A stretch of DNA of 64,000 nucleotides from an uncultured Clostridia bacterium (GTDB lineage Bacteria; Bacillota; Clostridia; Oscillospirales; CAG-272): assembly GCA_947624995.1 (NCBI GenBank), contig CANQMS010000006.1, positions 11,393-75,392 on the forward strand, read 5' to 3'. Shown here in pieces: positions 9,285 to 55,653 of this stretch (positions are counted from its first letter, which is position 1; every line of letters starts with the position of its first letter). The position numbers and the translations under genes are program-made. Under the pieces are notes generated by a model, which was not told the origin of the DNA, did not search any database, and saw only the letters and a list, made by a program, of their open reading frames with translations.

Positions 9285-9344
9285 TGCGGGAAGGAAACTT
9301 TTCATGAAAAGTTTCCTTCCCGCACCCTTCTTTCAAAAGTTTTT
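9285..9344 (+). repeat. hairpin/TTCAAA element, copy B
   Basis: Perfect 40-bp palindrome TGCGGGAAGGAAACTTTTCATGAAAAGTTTCCTTCCCGCA, then CCCTTCTTTCAAAAGTTTTT. Confidence 0.9.
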
Positions 9345-9492
9345 ATTATTGGACATACAAGTTTTTTATATCGCATATAAGCGGGCATGCTGCACAGTTA
9401 CGAACGATTCTACGTTTTAGCTAAATCGGGGGCGTTCGTTTTGTGAAAAAATACCTATTTTATTTTTGACGTACGTATGGTACAATAATATT

Positions 9493-9704
9493 GAACTCTG
9501 CGGAGTGCGTGACAACCCGGTTATTTAAACCCACGAAAGATTAAATGGGGTCCGGCTTCAGTCGGTGTCGATGCAGGCCTCCCGCTCGCCGGCAGCTTTT
9601 GCTCGCGACGGACGTTGGAAGCTCAAAAGCCGATCGAGAGGACATACCAGCCTTGCGAGAGCAGGGTTTCTAATCGCCGGGATGCACGGCCCTCGCGGGG
9701 TTTC
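9493..9704 (+). ncRNA. ssrS: probable 6S RNA
   Basis: End-to-end pairing GAACTCTGCG/CGCGGGGTTTC, GTGCGT/ATGCAC and CCCGG/CCGGG; A-rich 5' central bubble; 3' bubble hairpin CCTTGC-GAGA-GCAGGG; extended -10 TGGTACAAT upstream; T-run downstream. Confidence 0.72.
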
Positions 9705-9834
9705 TTTTTTCCCGATCTTTTGCGTCGCCCGAAATAGCGGGCGGCGCAAAAATATTATATCCGCTACTTGATTTTTTCACGCGAATGTATTAGAATACAT
9801 AATGGAACGAAAAACCAAAAAGGGAGATATAAAA

Positions 9835-10788
9835 ATGGCACTCGTAACAACAAAAGAAATGTTCGCAAAAGCGTATAACGGCGGCTACGCTGTCGGCGCT
9901 TTCAACGTAAACAACATGGAGATCATCCAGGGCATCACTGAGGCGGCCATCGCCCAGAAATCCCCGCTCATCCTTCAGGTCAGCAAGGGCGCCCGCAACT
10001 ATGCGAAGCACGCGTATCTTATGAAGCTGATCGAGGCGGCTCTCATCGACGCACAGGAATCTGCCGGATTCGACCTTCCGATCGCGGTCCATCTCGACCA
10101 CGGCGACACGTTTGAGCTCTGCAAGTCCTGCATAGACGGCGGCTTCACCTCCGTCATGATCGACGGCTCGTCAAAGAGCTTCAAGGACAATATCGAGCTG
10201 ACAAAGAAGGTCGTTGAATACGCGCACGCTCACGGCGTTGTCGTCGAGGCGGAGCTCGGAACGCTCGCAGGCGTTGAGGACGAGGTCAAGGTTTCCGCTG
10301 AGGATTCTTCTTACACGAAGCCCGAGCAGGTCGAGGAATTCGTCGGCGCTACCGGATGTGACTCGCTCGCTATCGCCATCGGCACGAGCCACGGCGCGTA
10401 CAAGTTCAAGCCCGGCACGAAGCCGCAGCTCAGATTCGATATCCTCGAAGAGGTTTCAAAGCGCCTGCCCGGATTCCCGATAGTGCTGCACGGCTCGTCG
10501 TCCGTCCCGCAGGAGTTTGTCAAGGAGATCAACGAGAACGGCGGCAATATGCCCGGCGCTATCGGCGTTCCCGAGGATCAGCTCCGTCACGCGGCGTCCA
10601 TGGCGGTCTGCAAGATCAACATTGACTCCGACCTGCGCCTCGCTATGACGGCGTCCATACGCAAGTACTTCAACGAGCATCCCGATCACTTCGATCCCCG
10701 CCAGTACCTCAAGCCCGCGCGCGAGGCTATCAAGGCAATGGTCGAGCACAAGATCGTCGACGTCCTCGGCTCGAACGGAAAAGCGTAA
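9835..10788 (+). CDS. fba: class II fructose-1,6-bisphosphate aldolase
   Basis: HLDHG, VEAELG, AIGTSHG, LHGSS and KINID motifs. Confidence 0.95.
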   Translation: MALVTTKEMFAKAYNGGYAVGAFNVNNMEIIQGITEAAIAQKSPLILQVSKGARNYAKHAYLMKLIEAALIDAQESAGFDLPIAVHLDHGDTFELCKSCIDGGFTSVMIDGSSKSFKDNIELTKKVVEYAHAHGVVVEAELGTLAGVEDEVKVSAEDSSYTKPEQVEEFVGATGCDSLAIAIGTSHGAYKFKPGTKPQLRFDILEEVSKRLPGFPIVLHGSSSVPQEFVKEINENGGNMPGAIGVPEDQLRHAASMAVCKINIDSDLRLAMTASIRKYFNEHPDHFDPRQYLKPAREAIKAMVEHKIVDVLGSNGKA

Positions 10789-10812
10789 GCGCAAGCCATA
10801 TAAGCAAACATC

Positions 10813-10848
10813 GGGGACGGCTTATAACCGTCCCCTCTGCTTTTCTTT
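10813..10848 (+). terminator. intrinsic terminator after fba
   Basis: GGGGACGG/CCGTCCCC stem with T-rich tail. Confidence 0.65.
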
Positions 10849-18483: not shown

Positions 18484-18710
18484 AACGTTTGTACCTCGGT
18501 GCCATTTTTTTGATGCACACTTATTGTACGCCGTGTGGGGCACAATATCAACCTACAGAACGTTTCCGCGCCTCGACGCGCCGTTCCGCGCCGGTAGAGA
18601 AGACAAAAACGGACTCTACGGGCAGTAGAATTTCCTTGCGCCGCCTGTATCTACGCGCAGTCGAGCCTGCCGCGCCCTCTCTCGGTTCACACCGTCACAA
18701 CACAGTCAAT

Positions 18711-18771
18711 AAAAAGTTTTGAAGATAGGGGTCCGGGGGAAGTGCCTTTCCTAAAAGGCACTTCCCCCGGA
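18711..18771 (-). repeat. hairpin/TTCAAA element, copy C
   Basis: TCCGGGGGAAGTGCCTTT-CCTA-AAAGGCACTTCCCCCGGA; minus-strand tail CCCCTATCTTCAAAACTTTTT; 11 nt after the thiI stop. Confidence 0.9.
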
Positions 18772-18781: not shown

Positions 18782-19993
18782 TCAGTTTGCCGCATACTCA
18801 CGGGGAGGCTCGCCGCTCCTGATGTAGTAGAGGCGGCGCGTTGCCCACGCCTCGTCCGCGAGGGCGGCGAAGTCGACCTTTGCCTCCTGCTCCTCGACCT
18901 TTGAAAGCTCGGGGCGCGTTTTCGGGTGGGGCGGCGTGAAGACGGTGCAGCAGTCCTCATACGGCAAGATCGAGGTGTCAAATGCGCCTATCTTCCGCGA
19001 CACGGTGATTATCTCCTCCTTGTCCATGCCGATGCAGGGGCGAAAGACGGGGAGCGAGGTCACGATATCCGTCGCCGAGAGGGCGTGCATCGTCTGGCTC
19101 GCGACCTGACCGAGGCTTTCGCCCGTGATCAGCGCCTGAGCGCCCGTGTGCCTCGCCGTCCTGTCGGCGAGCGCCATCATGAACCGGCGCAGAAGGATAG
19201 TGAAATAGTCGTTGTCGCAGGTGTCGCGCAGGACCTCCTGTATATGCGTGACGGAGATGACGTGGACGCGTATCTCGCCCGACCAGTCCGTCAGGATGGA
19301 GGCGAGGGCGAGGACCTTGTCCCGCGCCTGCTCGCTCGTATAGGGGATGCTCTCGAAGTGGACCGCGTCGACGGTGACGCCGCGCTTCATCATCATATAT
19401 CCGGCAACGGGGCTGTCGATGCCGCCGGAGAGCAGCAAGAGCGCGCGCCCGTTTGTCCCGGCGGGGAGCCCGCCGGCGCCGCGCTCCTGTCCCGCGTGGA
19501 TGTAGGCACCGCGCTCGCGGACCTCGACCGTCACAACGACGTCGGGTGAGTGCAGATCGACCGTGAGAGCGGGGGCGGCGTCGAGGATCGCCTCGCCGAC
19601 GGAGGCGGCGATCTCCGGCGATTTCATCGGAAAGCGCTTGTCTGCGCGCTTCGCCTCGACCTTGAACGTCCGCGCGCCGTCGACGGATGCGGGGATGTAT
19701 CCCGCAGCGACGCGGCGGATGTCGCCGATATCCTTTTCCGCGACGGCGGCAACGCAGAGTCCCGAAAAGCCGAAGACATGCTCCGCCTCGCGGTACATCT
19801 CGTCGATATCGTCACCCTCGCCGCACGGCTCGATGTAAACGGTGCTCTGCGCCGCGTAGATCTCGAAATCGCCGACGCGCTTTGCGCGGCGGCGCAGGTC
19901 CTTCATCATCGTCTGCTCGAACTGCGGTCTGTTTGCGCCCTTGAGGGCGACCTCGCCGTATTTGCAAAGTATTACCCGCCTGTAGTTTTCCAT
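18782..19993 (-). CDS. thiI: tRNA 4-thiouridine synthase ThiI
   Basis: KYGEVALKGANR, THUMP domain, LLSGGIDSPVA, GESLGQVASQT and PYEDCC motifs. Confidence 0.95.
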   Translation of the reverse strand: MENYRRVILCKYGEVALKGANRPQFEQTMMKDLRRRAKRVGDFEIYAAQSTVYIEPCGEGDDIDEMYREAEHVFGFSGLCVAAVAEKDIGDIRRVAAGYIPASVDGARTFKVEAKRADKRFPMKSPEIAASVGEAILDAAPALTVDLHSPDVVVTVEVRERGAYIHAGQERGAGGLPAGTNGRALLLLSGGIDSPVAGYMMMKRGVTVDAVHFESIPYTSEQARDKVLALASILTDWSGEIRVHVISVTHIQEVLRDTCDNDYFTILLRRFMMALADRTARHTGAQALITGESLGQVASQTMHALSATDIVTSLPVFRPCIGMDKEEIITVSRKIGAFDTSILPYEDCCTVFTPPHPKTRPELSKVEEQEAKVDFAALADEAWATRRLYYIRSGEPPREYAAN

Positions 19994-36763: not shown

Positions 36764-36882
36764 GTTTATGCGTCCCCTTTAAAAAACAACATATCCGGGA
36801 CATATTATTCCGCCGGCACTTGTTTTTTATGCGCGGGTGTGATATACTTATGGAAGAAAAAAGAAAGGTTCGGTATTTATAA

Positions 36883-37458: not shown

Positions 37459-37477
37459 GGGATTGTTTAAAAGATAT

Positions 37478-37533: not shown

Positions 37534-37548
37534 ACTTTTTAAGTCAAT

Positions 37549-37605
37549 AAAGATTTTTGAAGGTGGGTCCGGGAGGGAACTTTTTTTAAAAAGTTCCCTC
37601 CCGGA
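37549..37605 (-). repeat. hairpin/TTCAAA element, copy E2 (right half of inverted doublet)
   Basis: TCCGGGAGGGAACTTTTT-TT-AAAAAGTTCCCTCCCGGA; minus-strand tail CCCACCTTCAAAAATCTTT. Confidence 0.88.
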
Positions 37606-37612
37606 AATATTA

Positions 37613-38758: not shown

Positions 38759-38770
38759 GATTCCGACCCG

Positions 38771-39295: not shown

Positions 39296-39348
39296 TATTT
39301 ATCCCTCTTCGGTTTATTTAAAACGAAGGCAAAAATCGTCTTTCCTAT

Positions 39349-39377
39349 ATTATATAACCGCGACCGCCGCTTGTCAA
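39349..39377 (-). promoter_or_regulatory. consensus sigma-A promoter
   Basis: TTGACA-17 nt-TATAAT; -35 box overlaps the upstream stop codon. Confidence 0.75.
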
Positions 39378-40609
39378 TCGCCAAGCGCGGCTATTTCGCG
39401 CGCGGCAAGGATGACGCCGAGCCGCCCCGACTCGTACGTGAGCCCGCCCTGCATATAGGCGATATACGGCGGGCGCAGGGGACCGTCCGCGGACAGCTCA
39501 ATGGAGGCGCCGGAAACGAACGTCCCCGCCGCCATTATGACCTTGTCCTCGTAGCCGGGCATGTCCCACGGCTCCGGCGTCACGAACGAATCGACGGGCG
39601 AGCCGTGCTGTATGCCGCGGCAGAACGCGCAGAGCGCGTCCGGGTCGCCGAACTTTATCGTCTCGATTATGTCGGACCTGTCCTCGTCCCACTGCGGCGA
39701 GACCTCGAATCCCATGCGGTCGAAGACGTAGGCGGCGAGCGCCGCCGTTTTTTTCGCCTGCGCAACGGTGTGCGGCGCCATGAAAAAGCCCTGTATCATG
39801 TGGCGGTTCTGCCCGAGCGTCGCGCCGACCTCGCCGCCGATGCCCGGCGTCGTCAGTCTGTACGAGGCGAGCTCAACGGCGCGCGCCGTCCCGGCGAGAT
39901 ATCCGCCCGACATCGCGAGCCCGCCGCCCGGGTTCTTGATGAGCGAGCCCATCATGAGGTCCGCCCGGGGCTCCGAATAGTCCGTGAACTCGCCGTAGCA
40001 GTTGTCGAGGACGACATAGGCGGATGTGCGCGCGTGTACGAAATCGCACAGCTCGTCAAGCTCCGGGACGGTGAGCGCGCGCCTGTCGCCGTAGCCGCGG
40101 CTGCGCTGCGCGTATATAACTTTGATTTTGGCGTTTGCCGAAATTTTTTCGGCAATTGCGGAAAAGTCAATTTTGCCGTCCTTCAGCGGGACCTCGTCGT
40201 AATTTATGCCGAAGTCGTAGAGCGACCCCTCGCCGTCGCGCCCGTTTATGACGCGGGAGAGCGTGTCATACGGCGCGCCGGTGACGGAGAGCATCGTGTC
40301 CCCGGTGCGAAGGAGTCCGAACAGCCCTATCGCGATGGCATGGGTGCCGTTCGCGACGGAATGGCGGACGACGGCTGCCTCCGTGCCGAATACGTCGGCA
40401 TATACGCGATCGAGCGTTTCGCGTCCGCGATCGCCGTAGCCGTAACCGCTCGTCGGGTAGAGGCACGCCTCGGACATCCCGCACCGGCGGAACGCGTCTA
40501 TGACGTCTGCGGTGCGCGCCTGCGCGATCTTGTCGAACCGGTCAAAGACGGGGCGCAGCGCCGCCTCCGCCTCGGCGACGAGGCTTTCTATGTCTGTGTT
40601 TTTATTCAT
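39374..40609 (-). CDS. methionine gamma-lyase family / YnbB (aluminium-resistance family) PLP protein
   Basis: GYGYGDRGR, GTHAI, QRSRGY, DNCYGEF, GSLIKNPGGG and MAAGTFVSGASIELSADGP motifs. Confidence 0.9.
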   Translation of the reverse strand: MNKNTDIESLVAEAEAALRPVFDRFDKIAQARTADVIDAFRRCGMSEACLYPTSGYGYGDRGRETLDRVYADVFGTEAAVVRHSVANGTHAIAIGLFGLLRTGDTMLSVTGAPYDTLSRVINGRDGEGSLYDFGINYDEVPLKDGKIDFSAIAEKISANAKIKVIYAQRSRGYGDRRALTVPELDELCDFVHARTSAYVVLDNCYGEFTDYSEPRADLMMGSLIKNPGGGLAMSGGYLAGTARAVELASYRLTTPGIGGEVGATLGQNRHMIQGFFMAPHTVAQAKKTAALAAYVFDRMGFEVSPQWDEDRSDIIETIKFGDPDALCAFCRGIQHGSPVDSFVTPEPWDMPGYEDKVIMAAGTFVSGASIELSADGPLRPPYIAYMQGGLTYESGRLGVILAAREIAALGD

Positions 40610-40789
40610 GATCTCACCGAAACGAAAAAAGTCTACGAGTCTACGGTCAATATTATATAATCAATTCGCGAAAAGCGCAAGGGGGTGCGCGTTTTTTTGC
40701 CGTGCAGCGGGATTATAATTGTATTTGCGGGCAAAATGTGGTAAAATGGTAAGGAAGAAACAAACTGTTTTCGAAAGGCTGAAATCGTT

Positions 40790-41617
40790 ATGGGAAGATA
40801 CAGGCTCGGATGCTCCATCCCCGGCGCATCCTTCATGCCGGAGGGCGAGGCGGGAATAAAGCGGAGCGCGCTCGAACTCCTTTCGGACGGGTGCGAGGCG
40901 ATCATCGGCGCGGGATTCGATTACGCGGAGACCGGCGTCGGAATGGTGATGAGCATGACGGAGGCGGAGATGGGCAAGGCGGCGGCTGCCGGGCTGCCGA
41001 TAGAGACCGCGAACAGCTTTATCCCGCCCGAATATAAAATCGTCGCGGACGGCGCGTGCGAGGTCGGCTCGCCGCTCTACAAGTACGTTGACACGGCGCT
41101 TTCCCGCGCGGCGGCGCTCGGGATAAAGATCGTCGTCTTCGGCTCGGGCGGCGCGCGCAGGATCCCGGACGGGATGGCAAAGGAGACGGGGCGCGCGTAC
41201 ATAGCGAAATTTCTCTCGATGTGCGCCGACATCGGCGACCGCTGCGGCGTCACCGTTGCGATCGAGCCGCTGCGCGCCTCGGAGTGCAACGCGATAAACC
41301 TCACCTCGACCGCGGCGGAGCTTTCGGGCGGCGTCGGCAGGGAGCGCATTTCTTACATCGCGGACGCGTTTCACATGTACCACGGCGGCGAGCCGGCGGA
41401 CGCGCTTTTGCGCGCCTCGGCGCTGCCCGTTCACATACACGTCTCGGAGCCGCCGGACAGGACGTACCCGGGGCGTCACGGCGGGGAATACGTCGCCGCG
41501 TTCGCGGAGGCGCTCGGCAGGACCGCGTATCGCGGCAGGGTCTCCGTCGAGTGCGGATTTTCGGATTTCCGGCGCGAGGTGCGCCTCGCGTACGATTTCA
41601 TGAATGCACATTTTTAA
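40790..41617 (+). CDS. sugar phosphate isomerase/epimerase (AP endonuclease 2 TIM barrel)
   Basis: GFDYAE, VVFGSGGAR, AIEPL, DAFHM, HIHVS and VSVEC motifs. Confidence 0.85.
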   Translation: MGRYRLGCSIPGASFMPEGEAGIKRSALELLSDGCEAIIGAGFDYAETGVGMVMSMTEAEMGKAAAAGLPIETANSFIPPEYKIVADGACEVGSPLYKYVDTALSRAAALGIKIVVFGSGGARRIPDGMAKETGRAYIAKFLSMCADIGDRCGVTVAIEPLRASECNAINLTSTAAELSGGVGRERISYIADAFHMYHGGEPADALLRASALPVHIHVSEPPDRTYPGRHGGEYVAAFAEALGRTAYRGRVSVECGFSDFRREVRLAYDFMNAHF

Positions 41618-41632
41618 AGGGAGGATGATAAA

Positions 41633-42706
41633 ATGAGCACGCTAAAGCTGAAAACGGCGCGGGCGCTCGATGGCGAGCCGGTCGTAATAAGATCCGAACC
41701 GGCAGACGGGCTCGTCGGGCTGCGCGGCAAGGTCTGCGGGAACGAGTGCGAGGGCTGCGTTTTCCCCGCCGTATACGAAAACGGCGCCGTCACCGCCATC
41801 GTGACCGCGCCTGCGGGCGAGCACGAGCTTGAAGTCGTGACCGGGGAGTCGGCGCCCGCGGTGACGCTGTCAAAAGTGGGCGACGGCAGAGTCGATATCG
41901 CGATAAACGGCGAGCCGTTCACCTCGTATGTGACGGATCCGGCGCTCGCAAAGCCGTATCTCGGACCGGTGATGACATCGTTCGGCGAGAGCTACACAAG
42001 GCTCGACTTCGAGACGAAGGAGCACCCGCATCACCGCTCCGTCTTCTTCGGAGTAGGAGACGTGACGCTTGACGGCGGACCCGAGCACGTCGATTTCTGG
42101 AACGAGCCCGCAAACTGCGGCATACAGAAGTCAACGGGGATCAAAAACACAGTCTCAAACAACGTCTGCGCCTCATTCACGGCGGGGACGCAGTGGTGCT
42201 CGCACGACGGGGTGCCGATGATCGACGCCGAGTGCGAATACAAATTCTACGCGCAGAACCGCAGCGTCCGCTATATCGACCTCGCCCTCACGTACACGGC
42301 AGCGTACGGCGGCGTGACGTTCTGGAAGACGAAGGAGGCGGGACCGCTCGGCGTCCGCATGGCGGACCCGCTGCGCGCGGAGAGGGGCGGCTATATCGCC
42401 AATTCATACGGCGCGCGCGGAGAGGGCGAGTGCTGGGGGCGCGCCGCGAACTGGTGCGTCTACGGCGGCGAGCTTTCGGGGCACAAGATCGGCATCGCGG
42501 TGTTCGACGACCCCAGAAACGAGCGCTACCCGACCTCGTGGCATATCCGCGACTACGGTCTCTTCGCCGCGAACAACCTCTATTTCAAGGGCCCCGTTCG
42601 TATCGAATCAGGCGAAACCCTCACCTACCGATACCGCCTCGTCTTCTTCGAGGGGACGCCCGAGGCGGCGAGGATCGCCGACAGATTTATTGTTTATGCT
42701 AAATAA
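41633..42706 (+). CDS. PmoA-like (DUF6807-type) soluble protein of unknown function
   Basis: KPYL.PV, HPHHRSVFF, DFW, TKEAG.LGVRM, WG..ANW and WHIRDYGLFAAN motifs. Confidence 0.75.
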   Translation: MSTLKLKTARALDGEPVVIRSEPADGLVGLRGKVCGNECEGCVFPAVYENGAVTAIVTAPAGEHELEVVTGESAPAVTLSKVGDGRVDIAINGEPFTSYVTDPALAKPYLGPVMTSFGESYTRLDFETKEHPHHRSVFFGVGDVTLDGGPEHVDFWNEPANCGIQKSTGIKNTVSNNVCASFTAGTQWCSHDGVPMIDAECEYKFYAQNRSVRYIDLALTYTAAYGGVTFWKTKEAGPLGVRMADPLRAERGGYIANSYGARGEGECWGRAANWCVYGGELSGHKIGIAVFDDPRNERYPTSWHIRDYGLFAANNLYFKGPVRIESGETLTYRYRLVFFEGTPEAARIADRFIVYAK

Positions 42707-42712
42707 AATAAG

Positions 42713-42772
42713 CCGGGGGAAGTGCCTTTCGGGAAAGGCACTTCCCCCGGACCCCCATCTTCAAAGCTTTTT
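42713..42772 (+). repeat. hairpin/TTCAAA element, copy F1 (left half of inverted doublet)
   Basis: CCGGGGGAAGTGCCTTTC-GG-GAAAGGCACTTCCCCCGG, then ACCCCCATCTTCAAAGCTTTTT; stem nearly identical to copy C. Confidence 0.9.
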
Positions 42773-42786
42773 ATGGCTATTATTAT

Positions 42787-42845
42787 AAAAGCTTTTGAAG
42801 GAGGGGTGCGGGGAGGAAACTTTTCTCGAAAAGTTTCCTCCCCGC
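42787..42845 (-). repeat. hairpin/TTCAAA element, copy F2 (right half of inverted doublet)
   Basis: GCGGGGAGGAAACTTTTC-TC-GAAAAGTTTCCTCCCCGC; minus-strand tail ACCCCTCCTTCAAAAGCTTTT. Confidence 0.9.
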
Positions 42846-42856
42846 GTTATTCCCCC

Positions 42857-45004
42857 TCAATCACTCCCGGCGTTTCCGATGACGGAGACGGAGAAAATTT
42901 CCCATATCTCGGCGGGCGCGTTCGTTGCGCCGACGCAGGTGCAGACGATGCGCAGGGATGTGCCGACGGTTATTTCGCCGTCCGCGAGCGACTGAACTTC
43001 CGCTTTCGGCAGCTCGATCATCGCGGAGACGTTCATGGGGGCATCATGGCTGTCCGTCACCGAAACAGTGTACGTGTCTGCCGTCTCATCGACAACAACG
43101 CGGCAGTCGATGTAATATGCCTCCGTGTACGTACATTCAATGCTTGAATAGTAGTCCGCGTGCGATTTCGGGACCGGGATGAGGGCGCAGACGGTGTCGG
43201 TGCCCTCCCTTTCGGAGAACCCGCCGTGCGGCCGGACGTCCGCGACGAGCGCCCCCTCTGTCTCGGTGAGCGTGAGCCGCAGCTCAGCGCCGCTCATTCT
43301 GCGGACGGTGAAAAACGCGACGCAGAGGTCATAGCCCGAGAAAAAATCGGTGCCGAACCGCGCGGTGCGCGCGTCGAACTCGGTGTCTGATTTGACCTCC
43401 TCCCCGCCGCGGACTGCGTTCCCAAGGGTAAAGAGCTCCGCGACGGAGGAGACGTGGAAGACAGGGGCATACTTCGCCTCCGGCGCGCCGTTCGGGATGC
43501 TGCCGGTGCTCACGAGCGGAGCGGAAACGGATGCGGACGGCCCCGGCATTGTCCCGAGGTAAAATACTTCGGGCTCGGGAGAGGAGACGGACTCCGTATA
43601 GACAGTTTCGTTCACGGTGACCTCCGCGCCGACAACGGAGCGCGCCGCGTCTCCTTCAACGGCGAAGAATATCCAGTAACCGGCGCAGTCCTCGGTATAC
43701 GCGGCGGGCACCGTGCAGTCGAGCGTGACCTTGAGGACGCCGCCGTCGATATCGACGGAGCCGAGGCTGTATTCGATCTCGGAGCTGCGCGGCTCGTCGA
43801 CATAGATGACAAACACGGAGCGGCTCCCGAGCGTTTCCTCGCTGCCGAAGAACTCCGCCATATCGTCAAACGATATGTTCCCGACATCACCTCTGTCGAC
43901 GGCGAGCCCGGCGCGGACCGCGCGCTCGCGGATGGAGTCGAGGTCGTCTTTTGACGTTATGCGGAACACGGGGGCGTCTTCCCCGTCGTCATTCAGGGCG
44001 CCGCGGCGGAACTCGCCGAGCATTTCGGGGTGGAGGAACGTGTTTGCCCACGCGATCATGCAGAGGGTCACTTTTGGCGCGGTCGCCTCGACCGGCTCGA
44101 TGGCGAGCACGCACGGGAGCTGAGCCGGGAACGTCTCCATGACGCCGCCCGCGTGGACGACGCGGACAGTGTCGCCGACGGCGAAGGTGTCCGGCGCGGT
44201 AAAGCCCGTGCGGCTGTCCGATCTCGACACATAGACGAGGTCCCCGTCTGTGAGCCCGGAGTTTACGGTGTCGCCGGTCACCTCTACAAGCAGCGACTTC
44301 GGGAGGACCTCGGTGACGACCGCGTCAAATATGCCGCTGCCGACAAATTCAGCGCTCACGGACTCCGGCGCGTCCGCGCGGGGGACCGCGACGAGTACAC
44401 AATAATTGAGATATTCGCCGCCCGGGAACTCCTGACTGTAGGTGAAGACTACATCGAGCGAGGAGCCGCTGCGCTTGAATGTGAGCGTCGGCTCGCTGTT
44501 TTTGCATTCAAAGACGGTGGCGGGGACGACGTAGAGCACGTATTCGGAGAAAAACGCGCCGTCACATATTTTGGTTTTTTCGGTGAAGACGTCGTCCGCA
44601 CCGGGGAGAAAGAGACTCTCGCGTATCTGCGCGAGCTCCTCCGGGGAGCCGACGGCGAACGCCGGAAGATACAGCCCGAGCTCGCCGCCCGTGGAGAGCC
44701 GCGGCTTGTAGTCGGACGAAAAGCCGGCGGGGCAGAGGAAGACGGAGCCCTTTTCGGCGAGGTCGCGGACGGAGATGCTGCCGGGTGCGCCCTCGGGACC
44801 GACTGGCGCGGACGCGGAGCGGAACGCAATGAGCACGGCGGCGAGCGCGGCGAAGACGAGCACGGCGGCGGCAGCCGCCAATTTTGTGAGATTCTGTTCC
44901 CGCACCTCGCGGCTGCCCTCGGCGGCTTCGAGCACGAGGCTGTCGCCGAGCGAGCCGATAGCGGAGAGAAGATTATCGAACTTTTGTTCGTTTGTTCCGT
45001 TCAT
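42857..45004 (-). CDS. putative anti-sigma factor with repeated extracellular domains
   Basis: Short N-terminal cytoplasmic segment (LLSAIGSLGDSLVLEA), one TM helix and a large repeated ectodomain; ATGA overlap with the ECF sigma stop. Confidence 0.7.
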   Translation of the reverse strand: MNGTNEQKFDNLLSAIGSLGDSLVLEAAEGSREVREQNLTKLAAAAAVLVFAALAAVLIAFRSASAPVGPEGAPGSISVRDLAEKGSVFLCPAGFSSDYKPRLSTGGELGLYLPAFAVGSPEELAQIRESLFLPGADDVFTEKTKICDGAFFSEYVLYVVPATVFECKNSEPTLTFKRSGSSLDVVFTYSQEFPGGEYLNYCVLVAVPRADAPESVSAEFVGSGIFDAVVTEVLPKSLLVEVTGDTVNSGLTDGDLVYVSRSDSRTGFTAPDTFAVGDTVRVVHAGGVMETFPAQLPCVLAIEPVEATAPKVTLCMIAWANTFLHPEMLGEFRRGALNDDGEDAPVFRITSKDDLDSIRERAVRAGLAVDRGDVGNISFDDMAEFFGSEETLGSRSVFVIYVDEPRSSEIEYSLGSVDIDGGVLKVTLDCTVPAAYTEDCAGYWIFFAVEGDAARSVVGAEVTVNETVYTESVSSPEPEVFYLGTMPGPSASVSAPLVSTGSIPNGAPEAKYAPVFHVSSVAELFTLGNAVRGGEEVKSDTEFDARTARFGTDFFSGYDLCVAFFTVRRMSGAELRLTLTETEGALVADVRPHGGFSEREGTDTVCALIPVPKSHADYYSSIECTYTEAYYIDCRVVVDETADTYTVSVTDSHDAPMNVSAMIELPKAEVQSLADGEITVGTSLRIVCTCVGATNAPAEIWEIFSVSVIGNAGSD

Positions 45005-45591
45005 TCCTCAATACCTTCCTTTTCGAGAAATTTTTTCAGCCTCCGCCGCAGGCTTGAGAGCGTGACGCGGACGCTCGCGTCCGTCGTCGTCAAGCGGCGC
45101 GCGATGGCGCGCGTGCCGTCCATGTAGAAATAGCGGCGCATGAAGATGATGCGCTGGCGCGGCGAAAGCGAGTACAAAAAGCGCGTTAACGCGTCCTTCA
45201 GCGCGATCTTGTCCGTCATGACGGCGTCGCTCCCGTCCGGGATGACGGCGGCGAGCTCGTCTATCGCGGCGGCAAAAGAGGGGGCGGAGCGCTTTTTCGC
45301 GGACGCGCGGCGTACACGGTCGAGGGCGAGGTTCCGGACGATGCGCGAAAGATACGCCTTCAGATTTTCGGGAGTTTCGGGCGGGATCGAGTTCCACACG
45401 CGCAGATACGCGTCATTGACGCACTCCTCCGCGTCCTCGCGGACGCCGAGAATGGTGTTCGCGACGGCGAAACAGTATGCGCCGTATTTTTCCGCAGTCT
45501 TTGAGATCGCGGACTCGGTGCGCTCGAGATAGAGCTTTACGATGTCGGCGTCGCTGCAACCGTGTCGGCTCGGTTGTCCTGCCGGTTTCAT
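45001..45591 (-). CDS. ECF-type RNA polymerase sigma factor
   Basis: DAEECVNDAYLRVWNSIPP, YLSRIVRNLALD, IFMRRYFY and HTH. Confidence 0.92.
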   Translation of the reverse strand: MKPAGQPSRHGCSDADIVKLYLERTESAISKTAEKYGAYCFAVANTILGVREDAEECVNDAYLRVWNSIPPETPENLKAYLSRIVRNLALDRVRRASAKKRSAPSFAAAIDELAAVIPDGSDAVMTDKIALKDALTRFLYSLSPRQRIIFMRRYFYMDGTRAIARRLTTTDASVRVTLSSLRRRLKKFLEKEGIEE

Positions 45592-45704
45592 TCGCTGTCA
45601 CCTCGCTTTCGTGCTTTCAATAATAAAGACGCAAATCACCCCGCAGATGTTAGCTGTGCGGGGCGATTTTTTTCGGAAAAACGGGACGGAAAATCCGGTT
45701 TCGT

Positions 45705-45944
45705 CTATTCGGCATTTTCGGGCGGGACGTATTCGAGGATGTCGGAGATGCCGCAGCCGAGCACGGAGCACATACGCGCGAGCACGTCGAGGTCGACCAT
45801 CGCGACGTCGTTGTTGATATATCTGTTGAGCTGCGTCCGCTCCATCTCGGCGCATTTTGAAAACAAATTTTTGGACATGCCCGATTTTTCGAGCTGTTCT
45901 CCCAGCTTTATTTTTATTTTTCCGTGTTCGACATATTTCAGCAT
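45705..45944 (-). CDS. Cro/C1-type HTH regulator
   Basis: MSKNLFSK..MERTQLNRY.NN...VDLDVLARMCSVLGC.ISDILEY. Confidence 0.85.
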   Translation of the reverse strand: MLKYVEHGKIKIKLGEQLEKSGMSKNLFSKCAEMERTQLNRYINNDVAMVDLDVLARMCSVLGCGISDILEYVPPENAE

Positions 45945-46128
45945 AATATTCCCCACATAAAGGTGTAATATACTTTTTAACAGTATAACATCCGCATGCC
46001 GAAAAAATAAGTCGTAAATAGCTATATGCAAAATCCAACACAAAATAATAAAATGAGTAAAAACTGTTGTGTAAAAAATTACACTATGATATAATATACA
46101 TACTATCACAAAAAAGGAGAATTTGCAA

Positions 46129-46791
46129 ATGAAAAAGAGGAAAACAGCGCCGGCGGCGCTGATTTTGGCGGCGGCGATCGCGGCGGTGACGGCGCTTTCG
46201 TCGTTCGGGTGCGTGTATGTGGGACCGACCGAGGACGGACCGACAAAGGTGACGGACGGCGGGGCGGCGAACGGAGGCAATACCGGCGGAGGAAACGGAA
46301 GCAATACCGGCAGCACCGGAAACGCGAACGGAAGCAATACCGACGGCGCGGGGGATGCGAACGGAGGGGACGAGACCTCGGGCGAGACCGTGTTCGGGAT
46401 AGGCGACACGGCGGAATACAGGGGCGTCCGCGTGACGCTCAAGAGCATCACGGAGAGCTACGGCAAGGAATATATGGAGCCCGGCGAGGGAAAGGTGTTC
46501 CTCGTCTGCGAATTCGAGGTCGAGAACGGCTCGGATAAAGAGATAAACGTCAGCTCCGTTTTGTCGTTTGAAGCATACATAGACGATTACAACGCGAGCC
46601 TTGACATCCTCGCATGTACCTCGTCGGGGAAAGAGACGATGGACGGGACGGCGGCTCCCGGGAAAAAGCTCGCCGGCGCCGTCGGCTACGAGGCGCCCGA
46701 GGGGTGGCAGACGGTAGAGATACGCTTCAAGGCTAACGTCTGGTCCGACACCGCGTTCATCTTCAAGGCGAACAAATCGGAGATAGGATAA
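46129..46791 (+). CDS. DUF4352-like lipoprotein
   Basis: Lipobox-like SFGC; Gly/Asn linker; FGIGDTAE...P.EGKVFLVCEFEVEN...G..APGKK..G.VGYEAP. Confidence 0.8.
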   Translation: MKKRKTAPAALILAAAIAAVTALSSFGCVYVGPTEDGPTKVTDGGAANGGNTGGGNGSNTGSTGNANGSNTDGAGDANGGDETSGETVFGIGDTAEYRGVRVTLKSITESYGKEYMEPGEGKVFLVCEFEVENGSDKEINVSSVLSFEAYIDDYNASLDILACTSSGKETMDGTAAPGKKLAGAVGYEAPEGWQTVEIRFKANVWSDTAFIFKANKSEIG

Positions 46792-46799
46792 ATAATAAA

Positions 46800-46840
46800 A
46801 AAACGACCGGGGACGCCTGTGGGCGTCCCCGGATGTTTTT
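46800..46840. terminator. bidirectional terminator
   Basis: CCGGGGACGCC-TGTG-GGCGTCCCCGG flanked by A- and T-runs. Confidence 0.7.
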
Positions 46841-46854
46841 GCTTCAGGGCAGAT

Positions 46855-49207
46855 TTATCTGTCCTTTTTCTTGAAGCGGATGACTGTTGTCATGCCGATG
46901 CCGCTGAGAGCAAGCACGGTGATGAGAGCCGCGACGTGCGCGGTGTCACCCGTCGTCGGAGGCGTTACCTGACCGCCGGGAGTCGTGCCGCCGGGCGTCG
47001 TGCCGGGATCGGTCGTGCCGGGCGTCGAGGTGGGAACAGCTTCCCATGTAGCGACGTACGTCACATCGCCTGTAACGGTATCGGTCACAGCGGGCTCCCA
47101 GCCCGTGAACTTGTAGCCGTCACGCGTAGGCGTGCCTTCGAACTTGGGCGTCGGGTTGGTCGAGAGCGTGGGATAAGTCTGAGACTTGAACGCTGTGCCC
47201 TTCGCGCCGTCCGTGTATGTGACATTGTACTTCTTCGCATATGCGAACGTACCGACTACTGCGGCATGGTCGGAGAGGGATGCTCCGGTCTCATCAACGA
47301 GCTTTACTTCTTCGTACTTCGTCAGGCAGAGCTGATAATCGCACTGCGAGTTGTTAACATAAATGATCTTGTCGACGATCTCTTCACTGAGCGTCTTCGA
47401 AGCGAACTCGGGGTAGTTGCCGTCCTTCTTCGTTTCGACCCATGCGTCTACTGCGTAGAGGTTATCCTCAGCGTTAAGTACGCCGATAAGGTTGGCGATA
47501 ACGTCATCGCGAGTGTAGCGGCAGTTCGTGTCGCCCATGATGATGATCGGGTTCTTGGTCTTTGAATCGACAATGTACTTTGCAAGCTGCTTGAGCTGCT
47601 CCGCGCGTGCGTTCTTGTCACCGGGGGCATTGTCTGCGTCCATGTGGAGAGTGTAGACATCGACCTTAACGCCATTTGCTACTTCTGCCACAAAGTGACG
47701 GAATCCCTTTGTGATGAGTTTATCTGCTCCGTTCAACTGGGGAATGTTGTAAAAATACTCATAGTAATTCATAGAGGGTATTTCTATGCCATATCCTTTA
47801 TAAGGAGAGTAATTCTCTTCCCAAGCGACTTTCTTTTCCTGATCTACCGAAACAGTAGCTTTATTATAGAACAGCGAGAGTCCGTCAGTGTCCAATGAAA
47901 TAAAGGGATAGGGGTAACCTTTGGATTGATCAAAATGACTTAAAAGCTCTTTTGACGAAACATCTGTCGGAACGGTGTCCTTGTTCTTGTTTATCTCCTC
48001 GTAGTCTTTGAGACCCGCCGAGAGTTTATCACCATAGGTGAAGTTTTCGGAAACACCGATGATATCCCAGCCCTTTTCAGCGATAAGTTTGCCGAGAATT
48101 TCTGTTTTGTCAGCACCGGGACCGTCAGGATTTAACGAAATATTCTTTTTACCATACGCGCCTAAGTCTAAGCTTATCTGATTAGGCAGACCGTCGACGT
48201 TGAAAGCAGCAGCGGTAAATGTGCCGTCACCCTTGCCGGTGAGCTCGAGAGCGTCTTTCTCAAGAATGTACTCCGGCTCTTTATAGTCCTTAACTGCTTC
48301 CCAGCCCTCGTTAACAAGGACGGAGACTTCTCTATTGTTCAGTGCCGTCGGATAAATAACAAGATCGCTGTATGTACCGAAGCCCCAGTGACCGGAAAAG
48401 CCGTCATTTGATCTACCGATAATAAGAGAAGTAAGATTGTGAATATCCTCGGGTGAGAGATCCGCAAGTACTTTCCAGCTTGCATCGAGAGAGTACTGTG
48501 CCATGCTGCCGTCAATATAGAGAACAAGTCCGTTGGATGCGGCATCATATGTTACCGTGACAGTATGCTCTTCATTGAACTTAAGAATGGTGGATTCATG
48601 ATCCCATGCATCGAGAGCGCCATCGACCCAGTTTCCGCCGCCTTCAGCCTCATAATACGGATGTCTGCCGGAGCCGATGCATCCGTGATATGTCATGTGG
48701 ATAGAAGTATCAGATCTTTCCGCTTCCGGGAGAGAATCCGTGTTATTTCTGCCCTCGAAGTAATCCCTCTCCGCGAAAGAGAACAGCATTTCGAACTGGT
48801 ATGTCCACGGGTTCTTGACCTTTGTGAGCGTGAACGAAACGGTGAAGCCGTCTATATCCGACACGTCTATTCGAGAAGATGTTGCTCGGGAGCTTGACAT
48901 AGCCGTTATCGAGCTTTATGCCTTTTCCTTCTTCCCACGTGGCGCACGTGGAATTAACGGTGGGCTTCAGCTTGTCCGCATCGTTCGCACGACCCTCATC
49001 ACTGTCAAGCACGACTTCCTTAACGTCGGTCCTGCCGGAATGATCCTTCAGGTCCTTCTTAAAGTCGAACGCCGCGATCGGCGTTTTGCCGGTACCTGCC
49101 GGTGCGGTGTCCGCGCCGAGTACGGGTGACGCCGCTACTGCGGAGAGCGCGAAGACCGTCGCCGCCGTCAGCACGAGCGCCAGGATTTTCTTGAAGCTGT
49201 GTTTCAT
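46855..49207 (-). pseudogene. frameshifted sortase-anchored protein: signal peptide, LamG-like domain, EEP (sphingomyelinase-like) phosphodiesterase, B-repeat, PPTTG anchor
   Basis: N-terminal frame (MKHSFKK...YVKLPSNIFS) continues in another frame (IDVSDIDGFTVSF) near 48870; EEP motifs FNVDGLP, GDTNCRY, VDKIIY and SDH; C-terminal PPTTGDT, TM helix and basic tail. Confidence 0.75.
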
Positions 49208-53348: not shown

Positions 53349-53454
53349 GTTTTTTCGCGATAAAAGAGCAAATGGCGCTTGTAAAAACGCGTGAATTGTG
53401 ATATAGTATTGATGGTTTCCAAATATCAGTAATATTTAAGGAGATTTTCGGAAC

Positions 53455-54756
53455 ATGGCAAAGTACAATAAGAAAACTATCGAGGATATCGACGTATCCG
53501 GCAAGCGGGTCCTCGCCCGCTGCGACTTCAACGTCCCGATGGAGGGCGGCAAGATCACGGACGACAAGCGCATTGTCGGCGCTATGCCCACGATCAAGTA
53601 CCTTTCCGAGCACGGCGCGCGCGTCATCCTCTGCTCGCATCTCGGCAGACCGCACAACGTGCTGAACGAGAAGATAAAGCTTGACAAGAAAGAGAAGAAA
53701 AAGGTCGAGGAGCTGCCCGAGTCCGAGCGCGAGGCGGCGACTGCGGCGTATATCGAGAAGGCGAAGGGCGATATAAAGAAGCTCTCGCTCGCGCCCGTTG
53801 CGGAGCGCATATCCGAATATCTCGGCGCGCCCGTCGTCATGGCGTCCGACGTTGTCGGTCCGGACGCGAAGGCGAAGGCGGCGACGCTGAAGGACGGGGA
53901 GGTCATGCTCCTTGAAAACGTCCGCTTCCACGCGGAGGAGGAGAAGAACGATCCCGAGTTCGCGAAGGAGCTTGCCTCTATGGCGGACATTTATGTGAAT
54001 GACGCGTTCGGCACGGCGCACAGGGCGCACGCGTCGACCGCCGGCGTTGCGGATTATCTGCCCGCAGTCTGCGGATATCTGATCCAGAAGGAGATCACGA
54101 TCATGGGCGGCGCGCTCGAGGACCCGAAGCGCCCGTTCGTCGCGATCCTCGGCGGCGCTAAGGTTTCGGACAAGATCGGCGTCATAAACAATCTGATCGA
54201 AAAGGTCGACATGCTCATCATCGGCGGCGGCATGGCGTACACGTTCTTCCGCGCGCTCGGCTCGCCCATCGGCAATTCGATCTGCGAGGAGGACAAGGTC
54301 GACCTCGCGCGCGAGCTGATGGAAAAGGCGCGCGCAAAGGGCGTCAAGTTTCTGCTCCCCGTCGACAACATAATCGGGCGCGAGTATAAGGAAGACACCG
54401 TTTCGATGCGCATCTATTCCGATTCCATCCCGGACGGCTGGATGGGTCTTGACATAGGTCAGACGACGCAGGAGCTGTTCGCGAAGTCGATAGTCGGCGC
54501 GGGCACGGTAGTCTGGAACGGCCCGATGGGCGTTTCCGAATGGGAGCACTTCGCGGCGGGCACCGAGTGCGTTGCCGAGGCGGTTGCGGATTCGGGCGCG
54601 ATCTCGATCATCGGCGGCGGCGACTCCGCGGCGGCGATCGAAAAGCTCGGCTATGCGGACAAGATGACGCACATCTCTACGGGCGGCGGCGCAAGCCTCG
54701 AATTCCTCGAAGGCAAGGAGCTCCCCGGCATAGCCTGCCTCAACGACAAGGACTGA
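53455..54756 (+). CDS. pgk: phosphoglycerate kinase (with internal insertion)
   Basis: [45 protein letters not shown] and STGGGASLE motifs. Confidence 0.97.
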
Positions 54757-54797
54757 AAACAGACAAATAGTTTTAAAACAGGAGATCCCATAAGGAT

Positions 54798-55556
54798 ATG
54801 AAAGATACGAGAAGAACGGTCATCGCCGGAAACTGGAAGATGAACAAGACGCCGTCCGAGGCGAAGGCGCTCGTCGCGGCTATCGCCGAGAAGGCGGCGG
54901 GCAAGGACAATTGCGACGTTGTCCTCTGCGTCCCGTATGTCGACATCCCCGCCGCCGTCGAGGCGGCGAAGGGCACGAACGTGAAGATCGGCGCCGAGAA
55001 CGTCCATTTCAAGGAATCGGGCGCTTACACGGGCGAGATCTCCGCCGCGATGCTCGTTGAGTGCGGCGTGACGCACGTCATCGTCGGGCACAGCGAGAGA
55101 AGACAGTATTTCGGCGAGACGGACGAGACAGTCAATCTCCGCGCGAAGGCGGGGCTCGCAGCCGGGCTCAAGGTCATCATCTGCGTCGGCGAGGTCATCG
55201 GTCAGAGGCAGTCGGGCATCACGTCCGAGATCGTCTCGATGCAGACGAAGCTCGCGCTCGCGGGGATCGAGGACATCTCGAACGTCATCATCGCGTACGA
55301 GCCAGTGTGGGCTATCGGCACCGGTCTGACGGCGACGCCCGAACAGGCGGACGAGGTCTGCGGCATCATCCGCGGCGTCGTTGCGGAGCTGTACGGCGAG
55401 GAAAAGGCGGAGGCGCTGACGATACAGTACGGCGGCTCCATGAACGATAAGAACGCCGCCGAGCTCCTCGGCAAAGTCAATGTCGACGGCGGGCTCATCG
55501 GCGGCGCGTCCCTCAAGGCGGACGCGTTCGGCGCCATCATCGACGCGGCTCAGTGA
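54798..55556 (+). CDS. tpiA: triosephosphate isomerase
   Basis: AGNWKMN, GHSERR, AYEPVWAIGTG, YGGS and GGASL motifs. Confidence 0.98.
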   Translation: MKDTRRTVIAGNWKMNKTPSEAKALVAAIAEKAAGKDNCDVVLCVPYVDIPAAVEAAKGTNVKIGAENVHFKESGAYTGEISAAMLVECGVTHVIVGHSERRQYFGETDETVNLRAKAGLAAGLKVIICVGEVIGQRQSGITSEIVSMQTKLALAGIEDISNVIIAYEPVWAIGTGLTATPEQADEVCGIIRGVVAELYGEEKAEALTIQYGGSMNDKNAAELLGKVNVDGGLIGGASLKADAFGAIIDAAQ

Positions 55557-55590
55557 TTTGAACAGGGCATATATAATCATATATAATTAT

Positions 55591-55653
55591 TGCGGGAGAG
55601 GGGACTTTTTAAAAAAAGCCCCCTCTCCCGCACCCACTCCTTCAAAAATTTTT
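55591..55653 (+). repeat. hairpin/TTCAAA element, copy G
   Basis: TGCGGGAGAGGGGACTTTTT-AA-AAAAAGCCCCCTCTCCCGCA (1 mismatch), then CCCACTCCTTCAAAAATTTTT. Confidence 0.88.

Follow-up and report, generated by a model that had tools for sequence, protein, structure and literature searches.

Why should the pyrimidine-rich stretch behind an intergenic hairpin be a mirror image of that hairpin's own stem, copy after copy? The question is raised by an interspersed intergenic repeat of ~65 nt, of which the window analyzed here, 64,000 nucleotides from an uncultured Clostridia bacterium, holds nine copies and the whole genome at least 69. The repeat runs from a near-perfect G-rich/C-rich hairpin through a 3-nt turn into a C/T third strand and ends in a T-run. 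Its third strand mirrors the 3' arm and, read in parallel, complements the 5' arm base by base: C stands for G and T for A and then, in the upper stem, A for T. The purine and pyrimidine blocks are separated by the ~12–16 nt of the conserved upper stem and loop, and of 67 copies, 39 have a turn of 3 nt before the third strand and 64 one of 2–6 nt. As the family varies between copies, with 52 distinct purine tracts among the 69 in the genome, the three strands can be seen changing together.

In the window, copy B opens with a hairpin at 9285–9324 (+), with 18-bp arms and a catg loop, 19 nt past the stop of an ABC-transporter ORF (7466–9265); its third strand at 9325–9345 (+) comprises the linker, TTCAAAAG and the T-run, and the GT after its A-run matches the "ca" of the loop. 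Copy C lies on the minus strand (hairpin 18732–18771, third strand and T-run 18710–18731), 10 nt past the stop of a ThiI ORF (18782–19993, −), and copy D on the plus strand (hairpin 31621–31658, third strand and T-run 31659–31681, mirror 9/9), 15 nt past that of a NAPRTase ORF (30145–31605). E1 and E2 stand tail to tail. The former (+; hairpin 37477–37514, third strand and T-run 37515–37534), 18 nt past the stop of ORF 36883–37458, has a GCGAG-type foot, and its CTCCC tracks GAGGG; the latter (−; hairpin 37568–37605, third strand and T-run 37548–37567), 7 nt past the stop of an aminotransferase ORF (37613–38758, −), sets A, not T, opposite a stem A. F1 and F2 form a second tail-to-tail pair: F1 (+; hairpin 42713–42750, third strand and T-run 42751–42773) follows the stop of a DUF6807 ORF (41633–42706) by 6 nt, and F2 (−; hairpin 42808–42845, third strand and T-run 42786–42807, mirror 9/9) that of ORF 42857–45004 (−) by 11 nt. 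Copy G (+; hairpin 55591–55632 with one A.C mismatch, third strand and T-run 55633–55654) lies 34 nt past the stop of a triosephosphate isomerase ORF (54798–55556). The interval 9285–55653 begins at the foot of B and ends at the tail of G, which leaves copy A outside.

The mirror strings quoted in the initial annotation are all present in the window, and B, C, E1, E2, F1 and G read as given there; those of copies A (7075–7097, −), F2 (42798–42818, −) and D (31646–31668, +) have 0 mismatches each, matched by 0 of 100 shuffles. For copy A the string itself stands at 10/10, but its left half is no more than what remains of a 3' arm, the copy having been split by an insertion of ~58 nt. The original 5' arm (7161–7177, −) is now separated from its own 3' arm, and an inserted block of two small hairpins (7096–7156, −), the second of which (7096–7123) resembles an ordinary terminator, takes the place of the element's apical part. 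The 3'-arm residue (7063–7095, −) holds the turn GAT, the mirror C-run, TTTTCAAAAC and the T-run. At the same site, a close relative carries an intact element.

The claim that each linker tracks its own stem had come with a check named beforehand as able to refute it, the comparison of mirror identity to the own stem and to other stems. Over the 69 genome copies, the mirror score is 6.26 for the own stem versus 5.02 for other stems, a value reached in 0 of 10,000 permutations (z 9.4); such permutation figures overstate independence, since the copies are kin and fall into subfamilies, recognizable for example by recurrent ATC linkers and GCGAG-type feet. A direct repeat as the cause of the linker match was ruled out, the corresponding control on the same 69 copies giving z 2.8. 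The lengths of the first G-run and first C-run correlate with rho 0.79, and those of the terminal A-run and T-run with rho 0.83 (n = 69 for both). The mean ungapped triple-compatible run is 7.81, compared with 6.67 (sd 0.13) after linker exchange; with at most one mismatch, the median run is 8, and 42 of 68 distinct copies reach 8 or more. Interior A-blocks are mirrored at equal offset in 13 of 15 cases in the own genome and 17 of 22 in other genomes (Fisher p 6e-5 and 7e-9). The tracking extends through TTCAAA into the upper stem and on into the loop: in two counts, A-run and T-run are equal in length in 54/64 and 85/101 copies and the base that follows them is complementary in 49/54 and 75/85; the 49 joint matches compare with 16.2 (sd 3.0) on average under permutation.

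The repeat is also found in sister species and in Desulfovibrionaceae, where horizontal spread is probably its origin. Among 30 distinct non-Clostridia copies the mean run is 7.53 versus 6.61 (sd 0.15) after exchange, with 0 of 300 exchanges reaching the observed value. Copy-by-copy tracking holds beyond the own genome, both in sister species and in a second phylum. The match is imperfect. It covers only ~80% of ~16 aligned positions, and the own stem is the best (or tied best) partner of the linker in only 13/69 copies. The exceptions include T opposite G and C opposite a C-G pair, both known as tolerated triples (PMC7583470). A further claim, that the element presents an invariant TTCAAA as a separate motif, did not survive: just TTC and a minimum of AAA stay constant, the T-run and A-run on either side of the C grow longer with the stem, and the stretch is not a presented motif because it belongs to the tracking strand itself.

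Since own-stem tracking holds and Watson–Crick rivals fail, an intrastrand triple helix, in which the last strand would lie in the major groove of the hairpin, is the best available, not a proven, reading. The strand order proposed at the outset (R arm, Y arm, short turn, mirror Y strand) corresponds to R-Y-H on the sense strand, class III of the intrastrand triplex classes I–IV of Hoyne/Maher as cited in Holder et al. 2015 (PMC4666352), and to H-R-Y, class I, on the antisense strand. The former would be a pyrimidine-motif triplex and the latter a purine-motif one, in DNA only. Two complementary terminal pairs must open to form the turn, as had rightly been cautioned given its usual 3 nt. The ITxF rule asks for a triple-compatible stem of 6–15 positions with at most one mismatch and for two loops of 1–6 nt. 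In the ungapped register, the run is 6 or more in 56 of 68 distinct copies and shorter in 12; the distance between the purine and pyrimidine blocks exceeds the loop limit, so that an ITxF search would probably miss the family, which is a limit of the search and not of the fold. Together, the 3' arm and linker make up a mirror repeat of pyrimidines around a 3-nt centre, which is what H-DNA demands of a sequence (PMC4666352); the mirror is perfect, for example, in copies A, F2 and D (10/10, 9/9 and 9/9). The repeat differs from H-DNA in that its mirror runs on into a non-homopurine part and in that a complementary purine arm sits upstream on the same strand, so that one strand can supply all three.

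Position and orientation offer a hint at where such a fold might act. The repeat lies in sense behind a gene in 56 of 67 copies, with a median gap of 15 nt and typically 5–23 nt past the stop codon, and 11 copies fall outside sense orientation. By replication strand, 27 copies are on the G-rich and 30 on the C-rich strand; genes on the G-rich strand number 961 of 1441. We favor, at a probability of roughly 0.55, the reading that selection keeps the triplex fold and that, the element being in sense and close behind stops whichever the replication strand, the fold most likely acts at the transcript 3' end. We infer a role as a transcript 3'-end structure, capping mRNA for instance, which fits position and orientation: the bulky fold would cap the end against 3' exonucleases and/or aid in ending transcription, and it would carry the T-run to the tip of the hairpin.

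The element resembles an intrinsic terminator in its G/C-rich hairpin just past the stop, with an A-rich spacer before and a T-run after it, but differs in the third strand of 15–25 nt that separates T-run from stem; a U/T-tract 0–2 nt after the stem, as intrinsic terminators have, is absent. A simple terminator scan of positions 28000–47999 flagged one of five copies in sense (D, through its T-rich linker) and three in antisense only (E1, E2 and F1), with F2 unflagged in either direction. Antisense transcription would be terminated by the hairpin together with the upstream A-rich spacer. In D. caledoniensis an ordinary terminator precedes 4 of 20 copies, so the element is not the sole terminator there.

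A precedent for a groove third strand at an RNA 3' end, taken to block decay, is ENE/MALAT1 (PMC7583470). That eukaryotic and viral structure uses a U-rich internal loop to clamp an A-rich 3' tail through U.A-U triples, whereas the present repeat would set a C/U-rich third strand on a G/A-rich arm, and its stems have no U-rich internal loop. The sense-strand fold would require 4–7 adjacent protonated C+.G-C triples; according to PMC7583470, the MALAT1 and telomerase triplexes lose stability in cells when C.G-C triples stand two or more in a row. Upper-stem tracking on the sense strand would require triples of the A.A-U type; RNA is stated to take up the pyrimidine motif alone, and not the purine motif (PMC4666352).

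It is possible, if rather unlikely, that the same triplex constraint acts on DNA instead. The antisense (template) strand would then fold transiently, while single-stranded, as a purine-motif class I triplex of G.G-C and A.A-T or T.A-T triples, continuing with T.A-T past the strand switch, and would either help the repeat to spread, by offering a mobilising enzyme a structure to recognise, or perturb replication and recombination; sense orientation would mirror which insertions are tolerated. Every triple on this strand would be pH-independent. The exceptions opposite stem A are mostly A (9/10 substitutions in the own genome, 22/40 in others), equivalent to an antisense T.A-T allowed in the purine motif, and one orthologous pair (site 114) differs by just such a T/A swap with the stem unchanged. 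The stems, free of internal loops and with 963 of 968 pairs Watson–Crick, show no wobble bias on the sense strand (G.T versus A.C, 2 to 1 and 9 to 8 in two counts), and TMECO is a proven purine-motif triplex in vitro (PMC4666352). That the repeat proliferates is evident in D. caledoniensis, where nearly the same copy recurs at 12 or more loci, and in the own genome, where such copies also lie at separate loci; presence is patchy, with 9 of 18 species of one genus carrying the repeat and other sequence in its place at orthologous sites in relatives. Against a DNA role stands the orientation, set by the upstream gene and not by replication strand, a bias that TMECO lacks; the antisense strand is moreover the less exposed one, since it serves as template in transcription and, where genes are co-directional, for the leading strand. 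A mobilising enzyme did not emerge either: the RAYT/Y1 transposase PF01797 was not found in the genome (97.6% complete), PF07282 (TnpB-type zinc-ribbon domain) gave no match above the Pfam cut-off, and of 19 genomes from the genus, 3 have a reverse transcriptase, the own genome not among them. Comparison of orthologous sites showed neither target duplication nor a clean empty site. REP, BIME, REPIN and MITE elements are likewise extragenic, multi-copy hairpins at gene ends, patchy among relatives and partly in inverted pairs, and REPs have been proposed to end transcription or stabilise mRNA (PMC3733652). REPs differ in having no stem-tracking third strand, and the REP tag GTAG/GTGG is found in 1 of 69 copies of the present repeat.

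A bolder form of the triplex reading we regard as unlikely. Here a strand-switching triple helix, on mRNA 3' ends or on a displaced DNA strand, would act as a terminator or decay block within a mobile repeat crossing between Clostridia and Desulfovibrionaceae. The third strand would read the 5'-arm purines in the lower stem, cross the groove at the AAAC/TTTT junction and then read the 3'-arm purines in the upper stem.

That there is no triplex at all seems quite improbable. The linker would then be a pyrimidine tract read by a protein or the ribosome, whose length must only span the stem, and the base-level match would reflect low complexity and shared descent of subfamilies. A C-run then T-run facing a T-run then C-run is indeed of low complexity, the subfamilies make copies non-independent, ~20% of positions mismatch and 24 of 39 interior A-blocks go without a counterpart in the linker. 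Descent alone, however, should produce arbitrary associations, and what is seen is always one rule, parallel complementarity, kept through six G-run lengths, through interior blocks at equal offset, through T-run/A-run lengths of 3–6 and the base that follows, and in a second phylum with different subfamilies; a linker-only interior block without a stem block occurs in just 0/29 copies in the own genome and 3/64 in others. Very improbable is Watson–Crick pairing of the tail with the hairpin's T-run and loop (a pseudoknot or alternative hairpin) or with upstream purines, the mirror being incidental, for although TTCAAAA and TTTTGAA are reverse complements in tgaa-loop copies and the minimum-energy fold joins linker and upstream purines in 5 of the 8 copies examined from the window, the upstream–linker duplex is no better with own than with foreign partners (−5.42 versus −5.45 kcal; z 0.18 and −0.10), T-run pairing just trades upper-stem A-T pairs for an equal number, asymmetric stems (GAGGGG with CTCCC) suit the parallel and not the antiparallel register, and C follows the A-run when G follows the T-run (22/22 in the own genome, 60/62 in others), where antiparallel pairing predicts G.

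Intrastrand triplex repeats as such are already known in bacteria, namely BoxC/PIT/TMECO of E. coli and other Proteobacteria (Holder 2015, PMC4666352); judged by its sequence, the present family differs from them in strand order, covariation, strand switch and gene-end position. Both are short, G/C-rich, multi-copy intergenic repeats with three blocks on one strand that would fold back twice, a 3-nt turn between blocks two and three and some inverted pairs, and in both the copy number differs sharply among close relatives. The order in TMECO is Y-R-R, which makes it class II (purine motif), whereas the present family reads R-Y-Y in sense (III) and R-R-Y in antisense (I). The 9-nt stems of TMECO are nearly invariant, and it lies 10 to 310 nt from genes without strand bias; here, the triplex part is hypervariable and co-varying, the elements sit in sense closely behind stops, and the conserved A/T upper stem is tracked as well, past the purine-to-pyrimidine switch. 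The published TMECO pattern (a C-rich stem and then two G-rich stems, each of 9 nt, with a loop of 3–6 nt after the first stem and of 3 nt after the second) has 0 matches on both strands of the genome. The reported support for the BoxC/PIT-type fold is in vitro only, from NMR and CD of the E. coli motif. In cells, DMS footprinting of that motif did not reveal a triplex, earlier work saw no terminator activity, and no function is reported (PMC4666352).

Covariation of three strands is the kind of evidence by which RNA secondary structures were established, and the joint change of the strands in this repeat is evidence that a three-stranded relation is under selection in cells. Its fixed position and orientation behind genes suggest a concrete role, and the cultured carriers Anaerotruncus massiliensis and Desulfovibrio caledoniensis make that role testable. 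If upper-stem tracking is real, the repeat would add a natural case to the alternate-strand triplexes, which are not otherwise known except from designed oligonucleotides. Should the strand-switching reading be true, it would be the first bacterial triplex element with evolutionary proof by three-way covariation and a defined role in gene expression.

The nine copies in the window, which has a G+C content of 59%, belong to one element, and the genes upstream of them are ordinary housekeeping genes. Each copy has a hairpin of 17-19 bp, the lower half of which is a purine tract of G-runs interrupted by A. The upper half is nearly constant, with AAAC-TTTT, a loop of 3-4 nt and AAAA-GTTT. One to three bases separate the hairpin from the C/T linker, which is followed by TTC, an A-run, 1-2 bases, a run of 4-5 T (60/69 copies in the genome) and an A (78%). 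Folded as RNA, the stems reach -31.6 to -43.5 kcal/mol (z -4.3 to -7.1 against shuffles), and 963 of 968 stem pairs are Watson-Crick. The spacer 5' of the hairpin is rich in A, T and G and poor in C. Over the 69 copies of a genome with 59% G+C, 19 of the last 20 spacer positions have only 3-12% C, which may reflect avoidance of competitors for the G-rich arm. Rfam returned no family at gathering score for the window, and among six loci of other genomes only two tRNAs reached that score. Pattern matches at 7492, 34300 and 54766 lack a hairpin and were discarded as chance.

All strings quoted in the initial annotation were located in the window. The range it assigned to them, 9285-55653, starts at the foot of copy B, ends at the tail of copy G and leaves out copy A, which it nevertheless listed as a mirror. 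The mirror string of copy A is indeed present, but the copy is broken, with its 5' arm at 7161-7177 and its apical part replaced by a ~58-nt block of two small hairpins. At this site a close relative carries an intact element. The replacing hairpins, GCTTTTTCGC...GCGAAAAAGC and AAGATGGGGC...GCCCCATCTT, lie at 7096-7156 (-), and the same nested palindromes occur at another site in two sister species. Four other copies in the own genome (on contigs C8, C9, C17 and C19) hold a CGTC-type, GCGTGTCACAGACACGC-like palindrome in the hairpin loop. Such palindromes nested within copies suggest that the element is itself the target of another small mobile repeat.

The linker was claimed to track the stem from copy to copy, and a genome-wide comparison bears this out. 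Across its 77 contigs (2.34 Mb), we searched the genome for hairpins with TT[CT]AAA[AG] on their 3' side. The 128 matches were reduced to 71 by stricter filters and to the 69 counted here after two unrelated hairpins (C3+82535 and C63-223) were removed by eye. Each linker was then aligned to the parallel complement of each 5' arm, in own and foreign pairs. The mean mirror score is 6.26 for own versus 5.02 for foreign pairs, and 10,000 permutations never attained the own-pair mean (z 9.4), these permutation figures being inflated by shared descent of subfamilies. The same test of the linker as a direct repeat of the arm gives a z of only 2.8, and this reading was rejected. Tracking is imperfect, at ~80% match over ~16 aligned positions, and the own stem is the best or tied best partner of the linker in only 13 of 69 copies.

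Separate features of the stem are tracked as well. Over 52 distinct purine tracts, the first G-run correlates with the first C-run (rho 0.79) and the terminal A-run with the T-run (rho 0.83). With no gaps and one mismatch allowed, the median triple-compatible run is 8, and 42 of 68 distinct copies reach 8 or more; the mean of 7.81 falls to 6.67 when linkers are exchanged (sd 0.13, maximum 7.03, 300 exchanges). The turn measures 3 nt in 39/67 copies. Where the purine tract has an interior A-block, the linker has a T/A-block in 15 copies and none in 24; 29 copies have a block in neither stem nor linker, and none has it in the linker alone (Fisher p 6e-5). Blocks present in both share the same offset in 13/15.

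The match continues beyond the linker. The TTCAAA motif had been described as an invariant presented by the fold, but it is not independent of the stem, as the tail A-run equals the 5'-arm T-run in length, loop T counted, in 54 of 64 copies. In 49 of these 54, the bases next after the two runs are complementary: a c behind the T-run goes with a tail G, and a g with a tail C. The 49 joint matches of run and next base compare with 16.2 (sd 3.0) after permutation, and the single AAAGG tail is found with the single stem ending in CTTTCc. Since run lengths and next base also track, everything between the turn and the T-run is a parallel complement of the 5' arm. The exception is the C of AAAC, which stands opposite the C of TTC; constancy of the latter is partly by construction, because our filters demanded C or T there. 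As a triplex, the third strand would contact 5'-arm purines along the lower stem (C.G-C, T.A-T) and switch past the junction to those of the 3' arm (A.A-T, G.G-C), in an alternate-strand arrangement. To our knowledge, such an arrangement is described from designed oligonucleotides only.

The placement of the copies, based on genes called with a crude custom caller, follows transcription. A same-strand gene lies upstream of 56/67 copies, with a median of 15 nt from stop codon to hairpin start (10th-90th percentile 4.5-23). Downstream of these 56 sense copies, there is a convergent gene in 29 and a co-directional gene in 25, at a median gap of 117 nt to its start; nine copies are antisense between co-directional genes. 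Close pairs are tail-to-tail in 5/5 cases. In antisense, a T-rich spacer comes after the hairpin and 3/5 copies look terminator-like; in sense, 1/5 do. A TTGAC 3' of the T-run was considered as a promoter and dropped, as a scan for promoter-like sites left the tails of D, E1, F1 and F2 empty.

Every 4-kb bin of the window (1-64000) has a positive GC skew; the window therefore probably lies on a single replichore with + as the leading strand. Genome-wide, the G-rich strand carries 27 copies and the C-rich strand 30 (12 are unclear), so that an orientation relative to replication as in IS200/IS605-type elements was rejected. As 27 of 57 copies compare with 67% of genes (961/1441) on the G-rich strand, copies are over-represented behind presumed lagging-strand genes, perhaps because about half of them sit at convergent junctions.

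A triplex is the best-supported explanation of this sequence pattern, and we put selection for a three-stranded fold, on whichever strand, at a probability of roughly 0.8. The orientation of the copies along transcription favors RNA, or the sense strand, and the version with a sense-strand triplex at the transcript end seems slightly better than an even bet. The sense strand corresponds to the pyrimidine motif, the only one to form in RNA according to Holder et al. (2015; PMC4666352). The commonest exceptions to matching (T facing G, and C or T facing a C-G pair) are the noncanonical triples rated most stable in a review (Brown 2020, PMC7583470). Against a sense-strand fold, it would require 4-7 adjacent C+.G-C triples, which the same review describes as destabilizing known RNA triplexes in cells, as well as purine-motif triples in the upper part. 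The strongest rival is a fold formed by the antisense strand as DNA. There, all triples would be independent of pH, and the A opposite A that is the leading exception at A positions would read as a permitted T.A-T; the stems, Watson-Crick in 963/968 pairs with no wobble bias, also favor this rival. The wobble counts themselves (G.T versus A.C, 2 to 1 and 9 to 8) are uninformative on an RNA stem. A search for RNA runs that contain 36500-46400 listed none.

Shared descent of subfamilies could also associate linkers with stems, and it does inflate our figures, but it leaves unexplained why a single complement rule holds in every association. Polymerases make antiparallel complements only, and we know of no copying mechanism that yields a mirror; on this ground, the mirror is unlikely to stem from a known mode of copying. 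Watson-Crick pairing of the linker with a purine tract upstream of the hairpin gains from the minimum-energy RNA folds, which join the two in 5/8 window copies, but was rejected because own and foreign duplex energies are alike (-5.42 vs -5.45 kcal, z 0.18; other genomes z -0.10). A pseudoknot, with the tail pairing antiparallel to T-run and loop, was likewise rejected, as it predicts G after the A-run everywhere, and C is observed whenever the T-run is followed by G (22/22; other genomes 60/62).

Intrastrand triplex motifs of four classes are described by Holder et al. from 5,246 prokaryotic genomes and plasmids. According to that paper (PMC4666352), the E. coli BoxC/PIT motif TMECO folds as a purine-motif triplex by CD and NMR, with no in vivo footprint, strand bias or gene-related position, and earlier work had detected neither terminator nor promoter activity. 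A search of the own genome for the TMECO pattern gave 0 matches. Our element is of the same kind but of a different family: its block order differs, it co-varies whereas TMECO is conserved, it has a tracked upper stem, and its position and orientation differ too. We found no description of the element family in the literature, on which per-genome motif lists in the supplements of Holder et al. may bear.

Of the 18 other species in the genus, 9 match a strict pattern of the element, each 2 to 44 times (0-1 for a reversed-pattern control), and BLAST added weaker copies in a few additional species. Several genomes of the genus at least 94% complete lack a strict match. In a search of 22 other genera, the strict pattern found the element in none, its sole match having no hairpin. 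A wider scan, in which 185,579 species were represented by a single genome each, gave 63 stretches, mostly from rabbit-gut and other gut Clostridia MAGs and Anaerotruncus massiliensis. Others come from nine Desulfovibrionaceae records and single MAGs of Lentisphaerae, Thermodesulfobacteriota and unclassified proteobacteria. Four scan records (L058, L067, L095 and L111) are chance matches with no hairpin. Three loci (L054, L073 and L087) lack the 5' arm wholly (the first two) or in part, and retain 3' arm, mirrored linker and tail. Pattern matches number 30 in Desulfovibrio caledoniensis, 8 in Mailhella and 9 in A. massiliensis. The mirror rule extends to these carriers, in other subfamilies: in 30 distinct non-Clostridia copies, the mean run is 7.53 versus 6.61 (sd 0.15) after exchange, with 0/300 exchanges as high.

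In D. caledoniensis, at least 12 near-identical copies are parts of a longer unit, and an ordinary terminator precedes 4/20 copies. At these loci (L114-L133), the longer repeat is built around the element, with AATGCCTCCGGCGG as its conserved 5' flank and small TTCG-loop hairpins in its 3' flank; at L120, the 5' flank read in reverse complement puts GGAGG 10 nt ahead of the ATG of a divergent gene. In the own genome, a copy on contig C50 has a ~55-nt insertion within the linker, containing a CACTTTTCGCGCAGCGAAAACGTG hairpin and a ATATCTCC...GGAGATAT hairpin and absent from the orthologous copy of a relative. The same insert, with the usual tail behind it, recurs at three further places (C47 and C54 among the contigs).

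Among 30 site pairs between relatives and the own genome, most have the element in both; of 22 pairs read through, four have it in the relative only. The 30 pairs include no clean empty site and no target duplication, and element-less sites differ over the whole spacer. At 15 relatives' loci orthologous to the gene upstream of F1, no intact element of the family was found; these loci hold ordinary terminators, nested-hairpin composites (two loci) or another repeat array, run into a neighboring gene, or stop at a contig end. In an element-less sister species, the orthologous spacer (L044, G004:C36:122852-126110) holds an array of at least 4 units of GTGAAATC or GTTAAATC with a different G/C-rich hairpin behind, which is another, unrelated repeat family. 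In assemblies that are incomplete and often lack repeats, no Y1 transposase was found in the own genome. Nor did PF07282, the TnpB-type zinc-ribbon domain, match above the Pfam cut-off in the 19 incompletely assembled genomes of the genus; a reverse transcriptase occurs in 3/19 of these incomplete assemblies, the own genome not among them. The distribution over species and phyla, the near-identical copies and the site differences together indicate that the element is a proliferating, horizontally moving repeat, for which we infer a function that would lie at the transcript end.
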